A stretch of 64,000 nt of DNA, taken from NCBI GenBank assembly GCA_965202985.1, contig CBDBCF010000001.1:928001-992000 (forward strand), read 5' to 3'. Origin of the DNA: Longimicrobiales bacterium (lineage in GTDB: Bacteria; Gemmatimonadota; Gemmatimonadetes; Longimicrobiales; Gaopeijiaceae). Of the stretch, positions 1,060-15,074 are shown piece by piece (position 1 is the first letter of the stretch; each line of letters starts with the position of its first letter). The notes beneath the pieces were generated by a model. That model ran no database searches and was not told the DNA's origin. It was given only the letters and a program-made list of their open reading frames with translations. Made by a program: the position numbers and the translations under genes.

Positions 1060-4000
1060 CTAGAACAGGCTGCCTTGACGGGGACCGCGAGCCCCTGAAC
1101 CGGGACGCGCCGACCGAAGGTGGTTCTGAATCGACTCCAAGAGGGACCGTTCGTCCGAGCCTTCCGGGGCCAGCTCGATCACGGCCTGCACGATTCGGGC
1201 GAACAGGTCGTGACGCCACAGGCCGCGCCGTCCCAGGTAGGCGTCCACTCGGGAGCGCTCGCCCGTCTTCCACAGCTGCATCACTTTGTGCACGCAGTCG
1301 ATCAGGGGCGGAGCCCGACCGCTGGCGTCCGGTTCGCCCAGCTTGCGGTCCTTTCGGCGGTGCCAGGGCTGCAGGCGGAGATCGGCGCCCGAGCCCGCTT
1401 TCGCCAGCAGGTCCATGCGTCCCGCCAGCTCCGTGTCCGACACGTTGCACGAGAGGGCGTACAAGATGCACGCGCCCGCCGGGGCCTTCTCCATCCCGAA
1501 GTCGTTGCGGTGGAGCAGGTAGTAGGTGGTCGGGTCGTCCAGGTCGTCGGTCGCCCCGCCCTCGCGCCGCAGCAGCCGGTTCACGACGAAGCCGACGACC
1601 ATGCGCCGCACGCGACGAAGGAACTCGGCGACGGTCAGACGTTCGCCGGGCGCGTCGGCCAGCTTGACGACCGGGTGCTTGCTGAAGGCTTCGAGAGCGG
1701 GACCGGTGGCCGCCCACACGAAGTCGGGACCGCGAATGCCGGCGTCCCAGAAGTCGCGGAGGCGCTGCGTGATCTTCTCTTCCATCTCGGCGAGGACTCG
1801 ATGGTCCCAGCCGGGCTTGGTGCGGGCCGGGCGCTTGCGACAGACGATCCATATGGAGGAAGAGAGGGCGGCGGACGACATGGAGCGCTGGCGCGTCTGC
1901 ATCTCCGTCTGGATGGGCCACGACGCGGTCACGGTGAAACCGGCGCGGATCAACGCCGACACGAGCGTCTCCCAGGCGTCGGGCGACTTGTTGGCGAAGA
2001 CGAGGACGAGGCGACCGTCGTCGCGAAGCGCCTCCCAGAACCGCTTGAAGGCGCGGAACATGCCGTCTTCGTAGTTCTTCTTCGAGGCCGTGCGGTCGCC
2101 GTCGAAGCGGCTGGCGTCGTCGATAAGCTCGCCGTCCTGAGCTTCGTTGTCCCACTTCGGTCCCAGCGGCTCCGAGAAGACTTCGTCGATCTCCGGGGAC
2201 AATCCGTGCAGGACTCGCCGAAGCCAGACGTGGAAGAAATCCATCAGGTCGGAGTAGGGAATCGCGTCGTAGTAGGGCGGGTCGGTGCAGATGACGTCGA
2301 ATTCCGCTGAACCCTGGAAGTCTAGTGCGCTTCGCCGAAGAATTGTGGGCGGCGGCGCGGCGGATACGGCAGATTCGGCTCGCTCCACATAGCGGGCCAA
2401 CCATTTCGTCATAGCTGCGAAGCCGCCGGTCCTGGCCGACAGCGGATTGACCTCGCAGAAATCCCAGACCATGGGGAGGGCGAAACGGGCGAAGGTGTGC
2501 CCGAGTATTTCGAGGTTCTTGTGCCATGAGCAAAGCGAGCTGCCATAGTCGGTGAACTTACTCAGGGTACAAGCCAGGTACGCGATGATGGCCTCCTGCC
2601 ATTCTCCGGGATAGTCCGCCAACTCGTCGCGGCATCGGCGGATTTCTCGGACGAACAGGCCAAGTGCCAAGAGCTGACGGTTCGTGAACAGGCTGCGCCA
2701 AGTGGCGAAGCCGTAGCCGTCTACAGAAAACGCTCGTGCCGCTCCGGCTCCTGCTTTCGGCGTCGGCTCGTCCGGCAACCCATAAGGTATGTCCTTCCAG
2801 ACGTTCCGAAGGTCGTCTTCCGTCACGTCGGAGGCATCGGTCTCTTCCGGTGTGGGCGAGCGGTATTGCTTGCCCTTCTGACCGTCCACCACGACCGCAG
2901 TCATCGTAGCACCCAGGCGCCCAGCGCGACCTTCCCGGCGAAGGTCGGCCATCGTGAGGACGGAGTTGCATTCCGGGCACGTGACACCCGTCCGGCTCAT
3001 CGTGCCCGATCCCGTGCTGGGTCCGTTCGCCTCCTCCCCCAGTGTGTCGCCCCGCAACCCTTCCTCTGTCACTGACACGCCGCCGCCGGTACCATACACG
3101 CGGTAGCTTCCATCGCCTCTCCTTTTCTCCCCGAGCCAGACCTGCTTCCGGCCCTTCCTGCACAGCCAGCGCGTTTTCAGCAAGGGTACTGCAGCCCGAC
3201 AGTCGTTGCACGTCACCGTGCGCGCCCACAGATACGCCACGACCGGCTTCTCTACCCAGCGCGGGTTGCGCGGGTCCTTCAGGTACGTCGAATCGAATTC
3301 CTCGTTGAGCTGATCGACCGCCCCCGCAATGTCCAAACGCCGATCAAGCAGCTGCGGAGACCGGTGCTTCCATTCCTTCGGCTCCCCGGACGCGGTGCCT
3401 CGCCCTTTCCCGGCCGCGGGCTCAAACTCCGCGTAGGTCAGATACCGATATGCCAGCTCCGACCGCGCACGATCCATTGTGCGCCTTGCCCATGCGCGCA
3501 CATGCCACGCCAATTCCGCCACCACCAACGGCGGCGGCGTCTCTGGCAACGACGCTTCCTTTACCGAGGCACCAACCGCAGACCTCCAGGTACGCTCCAC
3601 GTTGGCGCAGAGCTTCGCACCCTTGAGTCCACGTGCCTTGAAGACCGCCTCTACAAAGTCGCGATCTTTCAGCGAAAAGGCCGGCAGCGGCAACCTCTCG
3701 CCCGCCACGAGACGCGGATAGTGCAGCGCGCACCGCAACACGAACCACGCCGTCGGACTCAGATCCGAAGCCACCACTGCCGCGCCGAGCCGCATCCCCT
3801 CCAGCGGAATCGCCCCGCCTCCCGCAAATGGGTCCAGCACACGCGGAATCCTTCCTTCCGAGCCTTCCATGATCGCCTTCCGAAAGCCGTCCAGAGCCAG
3901 CCGTCCCTCCTGGCCCCACCGACAGATGCCGCCTATCGTCTCCTCCTTCGTGTTCCCCTGATCGTCCTCCGTCTCGACGACATGCCCGGCCATCCGCTCC

Positions 4001-14400: not shown

Positions 14401-15074
14401 CTCCAGGCGTCGGCCGCTCCGCGCAGCGTCGGCCCCGAGCGGCGCAGATCAGCCCCCGACACGATGCGGAAGTCCAGCCGGAAGAGGGTGCGGAGCTCCC
14501 GTTCCCAGTTGCCGACCAAGCCGGCCGGCGGGACCACGAGCACGCGCCGCAGGCGGCTCCGCGACAGCATCTCGCGGACGTACAGGCCGGTCATGATCGT
14601 CTTGCCGGCACCGGCGTCGTCGGCCAGCAGGAAGCGGAGCGGGTCCTGGGTCAGCATCCGTTCGTAGACGGCGATGCGCTGGTGGGGCAGCGGATCGATC
14701 CGCGAAGTCTCGCTGGCGAACACCGGGTTGAACTGGTGGCCGTGAAGGAGCCGCCAAGCCGAGACGACGGCCAAGACCGCCTCTGGAGCGCCCGCGAAGT
14801 CGAGGGGCGGCGCAGGAGCGGGGCCAAGGGGATGCGACGGAGCGGGAGCGACGGGGGGCGACGGTCGAAGTGCGACTTCGCGCGTCGCTTCGGCCAGCTC
14901 ATCCAGACGTTCGCGGGCCATGGCGTGAGGCCGCGATTTCCCGGCTTCCCAGCGGTGCACGGTGATCGGGCTGACCCGGAGGCGGTCCGCCAGTTCGCGC
15001 TGGGTCAGCCCCAGCTTTCGACGGAGCGAGCGGAGGCCGGCCTGGGCGGGCGCGGCTCGATCAATGGTGGCCAT
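11406..15074 (-). CDS. XRE-HTH + SNF2/RapA-like helicase + DUF3883 nuclease-domain protein
   Basis: N-terminal LRRKLGLTQRELADRLRVSPITVHRWEAG (XRE). Helicase motifs LLADDAGAGKT, VFDEAH, LTATPH, TDAAGEGINLQ, PWNPARLEQRMGRIHR. C-terminal GFDLVS..HIEVKGR..NEW (DUF3883). Confidence 0.92.
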   Translation of the reverse strand: MATIDRAAPAQAGLRSLRRKLGLTQRELADRLRVSPITVHRWEAGKSRPHAMARERLDELAEATREVALRPSPPVAPAPSHPLGPAPAPPLDFAGAPEAVLAVVSAWRLLHGHQFNPVFASETSRIDPLPHQRIAVYERMLTQDPLRFLLADDAGAGKTIMTGLYVREMLSRSRLRRVLVVPPAGLVGNWERELRTLFRLDFRIVSGADLRRSGPTLRGAADAWSDLAIVSLDTLAGDRAFGALREAGPAAAYDLVVFDEAHKLAATADDRRVRKTRRYELAEALAGCGRPAKRFAGLEWSARHLLLLTATPHMGKDSPYHHLWRLLDHRVFSTPEALRRFPPAARSRHFVRRTKEAIVDLQGRPLYPHRACDTFSYDLTPGPHGEQALYDETTDYLRLTYNRALRNRPAVRLAMSVFQRRLASSTYALLRSFERRMEKLERTADDLRAGRVSADELLRRQQTLARTHDDDFFDSHAADEDEGADGRERSEEYEDAVLGAVVAVTVEELMRESRVVARLRERAVRLLESGRESKFDKLREMLEDPRYAGEKWLIFSEHRDTVRYLVQRLEGLGHAGKVAQIHGGMAWPAREEQVERFRRPGGASCMVATDAAGEGINLQFCRLMVNYDIPWNPARLEQRMGRIHRYGQKHNVQIVNLVAGKTHEGRVLRVLLDKLEAIRRELDSDKVFDVIGQLFDNQSLRSYMLASLEDGRDGAGAGKAAERVASALTRDRVRAVGERERKAYGDPDDLAGRLEGLRGDVKREQYLQLLPGYVRGFVERAARLLGLEVRGDLDGFFALVPLRPGALDPLLPALDGYPEEARDRLCVWRPKVAGATAGGSSVPAVASAPAVWLHPGEPVFDALAAQVLDAFGRDALRGAVFADRRADAPYVLHLALATVQEEPEPGAGAAGVPQVLERQLLALRDGGDTGPTEHPVERFLVLSGTDVAPGQVPLAGRSLSMRADAVAHAESQVVTRLVEDRRDAERTELPERRRQVATGFGLRSAEVAHRRKRLTEDGGGEEQDLQKVKEEQRALGVERQRALEGLDAAPERIVSGGVRFLAHALVVPAAQYAVGELEAYDAPVEEAAVRVAVAWERERGGVVRDVSKPRLARAAGFSDWPGFDLVSRRPDGQQRHIEVKGRAGRAGVQMEENEWKQACHLGDRYWLYVVFDCATPSPRLLRIRNPFGTFVGGRVVNARHTIPVGAILKAGEEEGEKWEQST

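Follow-up and report, generated by a model that had tools for sequence, protein, structure and literature searches.

Organization of the locus

Near the left end of a 64,000-nucleotide stretch from a Longimicrobiales bacterium (contig CBDBCF010000001.1 of assembly GCA_965202985.1, here genome G000; the whole stretch is called the window below) lies a run of eight genes on the minus strand, 15074-1060, which an earlier note had proposed to be a composite defence operon of an undescribed type. All eight open reading frames (ORFs) were recovered in the proposed order and with the proposed domains (ORF list, Pfam, NCBIfam). The first gene, hmaA (11406..15074), encodes a protein of 1222 aa composed of an XRE-type helix-turn-helix (HTH; residues 14-66), SNF2 and Helicase_C domains, and a C-terminal NOV_C/DUF3883 domain of the PD-(D/E)xK type (PADLOC, Pfam, motifs). 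It is followed by two clan AA aspartic proteases with the DTG motif, copy 1 of 130 aa (11032..11424; TIGR03698, 85.8 bits with a cut-off of 57.35) and copy 2 of 157 aa with a Pro-rich tail (10568..11041; TIGR03698, 78.7 bits), and by a probably 5'-truncated Schlafen(AlbA_2)-HATPase_c_4 gene (9239..10564, with the ORF at 10540-9239) recognized by comparison with the protein P0172. Next come a type IIG-like N6-adenine methyltransferase (MTase) of the N6_Mtase/Eco57I type (980 aa, 6309..9251; PADLOC REase_MTase_IIG and structure model), a PD-(D/E)xK nuclease of an unnamed family (223 aa, 5641..6312; assigned from conserved residues and fold, with no Pfam match), a KAP NTPase (467 aa, GC content 0.50, 4241..5644; Pfam KAP, PADLOC PDC-S20), and finally hmaB, a DUF1156 N6-adenine MTase (1048 aa, 1060..4206; PADLOC HmaB, Pfam DUF1156, motifs).

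The earlier note had ended the locus at position 1060; the eight genes within its limits are real, but four further genes continue beyond them, followed, to the left of the window, by hmaC, a DUF499 ATPase of 1124 aa on the minus strand (G000:C1:922344-925718; DUF499 and PADLOC HmaC matches). The embedded genes thus total ten, six in the hmaA-hmaB gap and four in the hmaB-hmaC gap. No tRNA gene adjoins the island in the neighbourhood checked. The best DNA matches carry the labels sponge or marine metagenome.

The seven junctions within the run measure, 5' to 3', -19, -10, +27, -13 (or -4 with the ATG at 9242), -4, -4 and +34 nt, i.e. five overlap, two leave gaps of 27 and 34 nt, and all are at most 40 nt. 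These overlaps suggest that the eight genes are translationally coupled and co-transcribed. With a gene caller of our own, spacings of no more than 40 nt were counted for 1163 of 2116 same-strand neighbours genome-wide, and 11 of 1678 tight runs extend to eight genes, so the packing, operon-like as it is, is ordinary and not unique.

The single promoter postulated for the run agrees with the single promoter-like site predicted at its head, a sigma70-like TTGACA-17-CATATT at 15081..15109 on the minus strand, which ends 6 nt before the ATG of hmaA and predicts a leaderless transcript. It is the best of 3 sites found, where 1.3 are expected by chance; judged by eye, similar -35/-10 or extended -10 elements stand right before the ATG in several relatives. 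Leaderless starts are typical of the controller genes of restriction-modification (R-M) systems, and HmaA likely autoregulates the leaderless promoter by means of its HTH. In this clade HmaA often has an XRE HTH rather than a Tudor domain at its N-terminus, and its ATG is preceded at 5-8 nt by a promoter-like -10 element, as in the relatives L013, L017, L019, L021, L023 and L031 (L-numbers denote fetched loci, G-numbers genomes of the family); HmaA lacks the HTH in some others (G101:1092k, G005, G057). About 110 nt upstream of hmaA lies a perfect 8-bp inverted repeat, GTCAACAG-TC-CTGTTGAC (15183-15200), which scores as terminator-like on the plus strand and is altered in G055.

The Hma core

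The two outer genes of the run and hmaC belong to one known system. Gene 1 matches the PADLOC model of HmaA (E 1.7e-159, residues 91-1172) and possesses the motifs GAGKT, DEAH, QRMGRIHR, GFD, IEVKG and ENEW; gene 8 matches HmaB (E 1.6e-107) and possesses DPFAGGG, DPPY and two CxxC motifs; hmaC, 3.3 kb past the hmaB stop codon and just left of the window, matches DUF499 (E 7.8e-19) and the PADLOC model of HmaC (E 8.5e-74). Catalytic motifs are found in all three core proteins, and the genes follow one another as hmaA-hmaB-hmaC, all on the minus strand. Every feature of Hma membership that we tested in the sequence is present, namely the SNF2-NOV_C helicase, the DUF1156 MTase, the DUF499 ATPase and their order. 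Pfam finds no PLDc (HKD) domain in HmaA, and the models for the other arrangement tested, the Type-2 BREX-related (BR) or DUF3780 and PLD-helicase type, stay below their cut-offs (NF042964 139.6, requiring 1100; NF042963 151.4, requiring 1000). An N-terminal Tudor domain was not found on HmaA either: the XRE HTH occupies residues 14-66 and the match to the HmaA model begins at residue 91, model position 68.

As judged from these features, the frame of the eight-gene locus is the named anti-phage system Hma (helicase-methylase-ATPase), introduced by Payne et al. 2021 (PMC8565338, available part), and is not new. The view that the system is unnamed does not hold, since PADLOC recognizes HmaA and HmaB, hmaC is found outside the window, and embedded cargo has been published. 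In the available part of Liu et al. 2024 (PMC11232893), nicking and nickase-dependent defence against T4 are demonstrated for the HmaA of Halomonas, and the roles of HmaB and HmaC are given as proposals. By analogy with homologues, HmaB would methylate the DNA of the host itself, the ATPase HmaC would help to sense incoming DNA, and the HmaA helicase with its C-terminal nickase would attack invading DNA.

Variation of the cargo among related loci

Genes embedded in Hma loci have been described: in the parts of the sources at hand, Payne et al. 2024 (bioRxiv 10.1101/2024.01.29.577857) report them in 931 of 1,485 loci, Liu et al. 2024 (PMC11232893) characterize the Hma region as an insertion hotspot, with insertions in ~66.5% of cases, and Rakesh and Krishnan 2026 (PMC12839542), who class Hma as Type-1 BR centred on DUF499, list restriction endonuclease (REase), SBD-HNH and Schlafen-kinase auxiliaries inside BR loci.

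HmaA is matched at E <= 1e-60 in 12 of the 121 genomes of the family, G000 included. For the comparison of neighbourhoods we used 10 hmaA loci of at least 50% identity from 7 family genomes (9 more distant rows were left out). The downstream hmaB and hmaC are present, in the same order, in 9 of these 10 close loci, and the content of the slot between hmaA and hmaB varies: a protease directly follows hmaA in 5/10, the HATPase remnant is present in 3/10, the MTase and nuclease in 2/10, the KAP gene in 2/10 and a Kiwa-like pair in 1/10. This agrees with the idea, already put forward in the earlier note, that a cargo slot lies between the helicase and DUF1156 genes. The exact eight-gene set occurs in none of the 10 close loci and hence does not amount to a single conserved unit; part of the cargo was found again in L040 and L097. 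In the closest locus, G055 (hmaA 96%, hmaB 88%), there is one protease, an extra HATPase gene of 999 aa and a second MTase and nuclease pair, and the KAP protein is merely 56% identical to that of the window.

Traces of recombination are seen in several relatives. Tandem MTase and nuclease pairs that share their 5' end are present in G055 and G101; the extra MTase copy of G055 is 88% identical to that of the window in its N-terminal domain and 43-45% in its target recognition domain (TRD) and C-terminus. The hmaA tail and the protease are duplicated in G048. Cassettes have likely come and gone through recombination between stretches of shared sequence, and once they have entered in this way they would act on their own.

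The proteases, the HATPase gene and the KAP NTPase

The two protease copies form a tandem duplicate whose DNA is 72% identical over 401 nt; G055 has a single copy. In the 121 family genomes, 9 of the 16 TIGR03698 matches lie behind hmaA, and a protease directly follows hmaA also at the paralogous locus of the same genome. None of 58 metagenomic protease loci, many of them on short contigs, shows another gene of the window locus, and we rejected a protease-Hma link as a general rule on the basis of these two counts. No description of clan AA proteases in defence was found in the literature searched. A third close copy lies outside Hma (L012, G000:C1:2457038-2457700), followed by a KAP-like frame that is broken further on by an ISL3 transposase.

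The HATPase_c_4 ORF corresponds, with 97% identity, to residues 141-581 of the full-length Schlafen-HATPase_c_4 protein P0172. It lacks the 140-aa Schlafen RNase domain and does not match PF04326, whereas this domain is carried by 93 of 120 homologues (hand count among the matches listed). In a near-identical metagenomic contig (run X1), 1585 other letters replace the 110 nt at 10568-10677 of the window. The ORF is thus likely the remnant of a decayed Schlafen gene, as far as the comparison of alleles goes. Protease copy 2 and the remnant share a reading frame with one TGA between them (10564-10570), and in G101 (L015:12201-13877) and P0177 the two form one 558-aa ORF with DGS instead of DTG. 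A protease-HATPase fusion as a designed module was rejected for now, with DGS replacing DTG in the fused proteins P0177 and P0178. As the ATPase ORF is a truncated Schlafen gene and the protease genes form a tandem duplicate, there is no support here for the protease/ATPase module envisaged in the earlier note; the protease pair appears to be a hitch-hiker behind hmaA in this lineage.

The KAP gene (Pfam KAP, E 5.3e-32) matches the PADLOC candidate PDC-S20 at E 5.3e-87, an E-value-only match in two stretches, the best covering residues 142-362. It is a candidate single-gene defence element similar to PDC-S20, apparently exchangeable. No description of PDC-S20 was found in the literature searched.

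Interpretation of the locus as a whole

The common features of these comparisons make it very probable that the locus is an Hma system with an hmaA/hmaB/hmaC core, in which the six genes of the hmaA-hmaB gap are separately acquired cargo, likely expressed from the hma promoter, and do not make up one new machine. Besides the MTase and nuclease pair discussed below, this cargo would comprise a PDC-S20-like KAP NTPase, a decayed Schlafen RNase gene and a duplicated aspartic protease.

Several observations weigh against this interpretation. All five kinds of cargo are kept in order in G055, and the arrangement hmaA-protease-Schlafen/HATPase-MTase-nuclease-hmaB reappears in L040 (Gammaproteobacteria) and L097 (Vicinamibacterales). 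The truncated HATPase allele occurs in the form seen in the window on contigs of runs X6 and X9, and its ORF is open over 433 codons. HmaA bears an HTH where, in the available text of Rakesh and Krishnan (PMC12839542), a Tudor domain is given for the helicases of Type-1 BR. As part of the cargo travels with Hma in L040 and L097, some functional coupling of cargo and core is conceivable; we read that recurrence as a probable transfer of the loaded island. Likewise, with its allele recurring in two other runs and its 433 open codons, the HATPase ORF may be more than a dead remnant.

If coupling were taken to its full extent, the eight genes (or thirteen) would form one integrated, undescribed composite in which the second MTase/nuclease, the protease and the NTPases cooperate with HmaABC. 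Such a composite could draw on the single promoter-like site and the five overlapping junctions of seven, on the run hmaA-protease-HATPase-MTase-nuclease shared with L040 and L097 from other phyla, and on the protease that follows hmaA in half of the close loci as well as in the paralogous one. We consider it very unlikely, given that its exact set is absent from all 10 close loci, the KAP gene has been exchanged (56% identity compared with 96% for hmaA), the HATPase gene is truncated, 63 of the 80 MTase and nuclease pairs stand outside loci of Hma type, two genes in the hmaB-hmaC gap lie on the opposite strand, and the 58 metagenomic protease loci are devoid of Hma neighbours.

Alternatively, the locus could be a graveyard of decaying defence genes that retains little activity. 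In favour of this one may cite the truncation of the Schlafen gene, the nuclease copies that are broken in G055 and G101, what remains of hmaA at the paralogous locus, and the degenerate orphan paralogue of the MTase, which reads NPLW. This is improbable, since hmaA, hmaB, hmaC and the MTase, nuclease and KAP genes are all full-length open frames with catalytic motifs, and positions 1-16000 of the window contain no homopolymer of 7 or more. Taken together, the separate-cargo interpretation is partly in line with the earlier note: the slot, the promoter-like site and the MTase/nuclease module stand, and the new frame, the one conserved unit and the protease/ATPase module do not.

The methyltransferase and nuclease pair

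A second MTase/nuclease module, as the earlier note had it, is borne out by the occurrence of the pair elsewhere. The counts that follow rest on 80 loci kept from 127 matches of a genome search with the nuclease; start codons at the overlap were chosen by script as those nearest to the aligned start, and L033, being a repeat of the G055 locus, does not count as an independent case. An MTase of ~985 aa lies directly upstream of the nuclease in 79/80 loci from many phyla, and the two genes overlap by exactly 4 nt in 75/80 pairs. A DUF1156-type MTase is present within the fetched flanks in 17/80 loci (15 of the 63 loci of at least 19 kb), which span Type-1 and Type-2 BR arrangements, and is absent from the flanks of the other 63. 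A gene for a ~155-aa MerR-like HTH protein abuts the MTase start in 27/80 loci, none of them among the 17 of Hma type (e.g. L106:6487-6999); the MerR-like assignment is a reading of the sequence, with no Pfam, PADLOC or NCBIfam match. In most loci the pair is thus independent of Hma, with 63/80 lacking a DUF1156 MTase in the fetched flanks and 27/80 having an HTH-like gene of their own. The nuclease family has a scattered distribution (a phylum sample of 301 genomes contains it in 2) and comprises 506 representatives at E <= 1e-10; a plasmid search made beside the scans of the family gave 2 partial matches only.

The MTase matches the PADLOC model REase_MTase_IIG (E 1.2e-43). Its structure model (pLDDT, the predicted score in the local distance difference test, 85) resembles BpuSI (E 1.4e-17) and DrdV (Z 21.8 over model residues 9-817), and reveals a degenerate nuclease-like N-terminal domain, a helical domain, a gamma-MTase domain, a TRD and an additional alpha/beta domain at the C-terminus; a nuclease fold, MTase and TRD thus share one chain, as is characteristic of type IIG enzymes. 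The catalytic motifs are DLTCGSG and NPPW, and DxxCGS and NPPW are invariant among relatives. In the N-terminal domain, the sequence reads PD52...Y64-F65-K66 and departs from the canonical PD...(D/E)xK. An orphan paralogue of this MTase (L009:4938-7727; G000:C1:864937-867726) is degenerate, with NPLW and a shortened TRD, lacks a nuclease gene and adjoins a type III-like Mod gene as well as one coding for a TIR (CAP12/Pycsar) protein.

In the small nuclease, residues E52, D97 and E115-x-K117 are invariant among 59 sequences. The model of its fold is closest to OkrAI (Z 7.0, root-mean-square deviation 4.2, 144 aligned residues), BamHI (Z 6.4) and McrC (Z 6.3), all middling scores, and Foldseek gave nothing at E <= 0.001. 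The nuclease of the window is left unnamed by the models of PADLOC, Pfam and NCBIfam; among family representatives, the nuclease part was unmatched in 49 scanned with NCBIfam and in 52 scanned with PADLOC save for one marginal BnzA match (E 0.00097). In the Atlas, the nuclease and the C-terminal domain of the MTase match unnamed clusters only, with DUF7008 and MmeI_C as weak leads. Comparison of the two proteins by hhalign showed no similarity. A complex prediction of MTase residues 195-978 (i.e. excluding the N-terminal domain) with the nuclease (score 0.26, mark 0.32) is used neither for nor against the proposal below.

Our tentative proposal, which we hold at somewhat less than even confidence, is that the pair is a widespread "split type IIG" R-M system, in which a IIG-like chain with a dead nuclease domain recognizes and methylates the site and a separate PD-(D/E)xK subunit, encoded by the gene overlapping by 4 nt, docks and cuts. 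Such a pair, as read from gene neighbourhoods, would occur either by itself, in many cases accompanied by a MerR-like HTH gene, or embedded in Hma/BR loci. As cargo of the window locus, the pair likely acts as an independent two-piece R-M module: the large protein would recognize and methylate a site and the small nuclease would cut unmethylated DNA.

The pair may instead be an ordinary type II R-M system, in which the small nuclease recognizes the site itself, or the MTase may be an active type IIG enzyme accompanied by a passenger nuclease; this we regard as possible, if on the doubtful side. Separate adjoining MTase and PD-(D/E)xK genes, as in 79/80 loci, are a classical type II feature, and the nuclease fold is closest to the homodimeric type IIP enzymes OkrAI, BamHI and BglII (Z 6-7). 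An active type IIG enzyme is suggested by the PADLOC assignment of the MTase and by the conservation of D52 (64 of 65 sequences) and K66 (65/65); since position 83 (E83) is acidic in 59/65, a relocated active site is possible. Position 64, however, is Y in 62 of the 65 (H in 2, L in 1) and never D, E or Q. Nor do several features of the nuclease fit an ordinary type II enzyme: its mean identity across phyla is 52%, with the TRD of the MTase the least conserved domain at 48%; its identity follows the scaffold domains of the MTase (Spearman 0.80-0.83) more than the TRD (0.65), in a set whose members are related and not independent; and the 4-nt overlap is kept in 75/80 pairs.

The literature searched contains no description of the pair; the relevant supplements and REBASE were outside its scope and may list it. 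The pair is the only part of the locus that is possibly undescribed. By the published guilt-by-embedding logic, this conserved pair is a testable candidate, not named as a pair by the present models of PADLOC, Pfam and NCBIfam. If true, a split type IIG would be a new arrangement of R-M subunits, in which the subunit that cuts is separable and the recognition domain can be exchanged. The locus as a whole is one heavily loaded example of a catalogued class and as such matters little.

Genes between hmaB and hmaC and other DUF499 loci

The hmaB-hmaC gap contains four genes, two of them on the opposite strand. The first, convergent and of low GC content (70..1011, plus strand), has no family assigned; it matches no Pfam or PADLOC model and is absent from the G055 locus. 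It is followed, to the left of the window, by an SBD-HNH type IV nuclease gene, whose product is a phosphorothioate-binding HNH nuclease (NF045808, 196.6 bits, cut-off 180), and by ORFs of 133 and 72 aa. The 133-aa ORF (L006:15934-16335) is built of internal 33/66-nt repeats (QKRETSAAMAT), the number of which differs in G055.

Genome G000 contains four DUF499 loci, the others being located on C1 at 748-764 kb (L007, L008), 142-157 kb (L011) and 2286-2299 kb (L010). The one at 748-764 kb is a paralogous Hma with only the tail of hmaA left; its cargo comprises a protease, a HATPase_c_3 REase, PDC-S32, a C5 MTase and an ABC ATPase. Another Hma locus holds homologues of HEC-03 and HEC-06, and the remaining locus is of the PLD-helicase type (Type-2 BR-like). 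Upstream of the run within the window, a stretch of ~200 nt 5' of a nitrilase gene (16690-16920) reappears inverted 5' of an amidohydrolase gene (19520-19750), with near-identical translations, and an integrase-core-like transposase remnant (~18515-19358) lies between the two copies.

Comparison with known systems

With published Hma loci, as depicted in the available parts of the sources, the locus shares the SNF2-NOV_C helicase-nuclease, the DUF1156 MTase, the DUF499 ATPase, the order A-B-C and the presence of extra defence genes in between. It differs in the number of embedded genes, which at ten (6 + 4) exceeds the limit of three per gap in Fig. 1B of Payne et al. 2024, in the XRE HTH fused to HmaA, and in a cargo that includes an MTase and nuclease pair with no HEC or PDC model. 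From the accessible text on Type-1 BR systems (PMC12839542), the tripartite core, the active C-terminal REase on the helicase and the Schlafen-kinase, SBD-HNH and REase auxiliaries within the locus are likewise familiar; here, however, there is no room for an N-terminal Tudor domain, the HTH taking its place, the DUF499 protein lacks HEPN and the Schlafen domain is deleted.

Among the cargo, the HATPase gene resembles the Schlafen-HisKinase effectors (bioRxiv 10.1101/2025.07.24.666596), insofar as its full-length relatives combine Schlafen, HATPase_c_4 and a C-terminal extension; the copy in the window is devoid of the Schlafen RNase domain. The KAP gene resembles PDC-S20 in its match over the hidden Markov model (E 5.3e-87) and as a single gene inside a DNA-modification system, but its best stretch is just residues 142-362, and the function of PDC-S20 is itself a prediction. 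The MTase shares with the type IIG/IIL enzymes BpuSI, DrdV and MmeI (PDB 3s1s, 7lo5 and 5hr4) a nuclease-like N-terminal domain, a helical domain, a gamma N6-MTase and a TRD in one chain, and differs from them in that Y-F-K replaces (D/E)xK, the nuclease is encoded by a separate overlapping gene, and an extra C-terminal alpha/beta domain (~845-980) does not align to any of the three.

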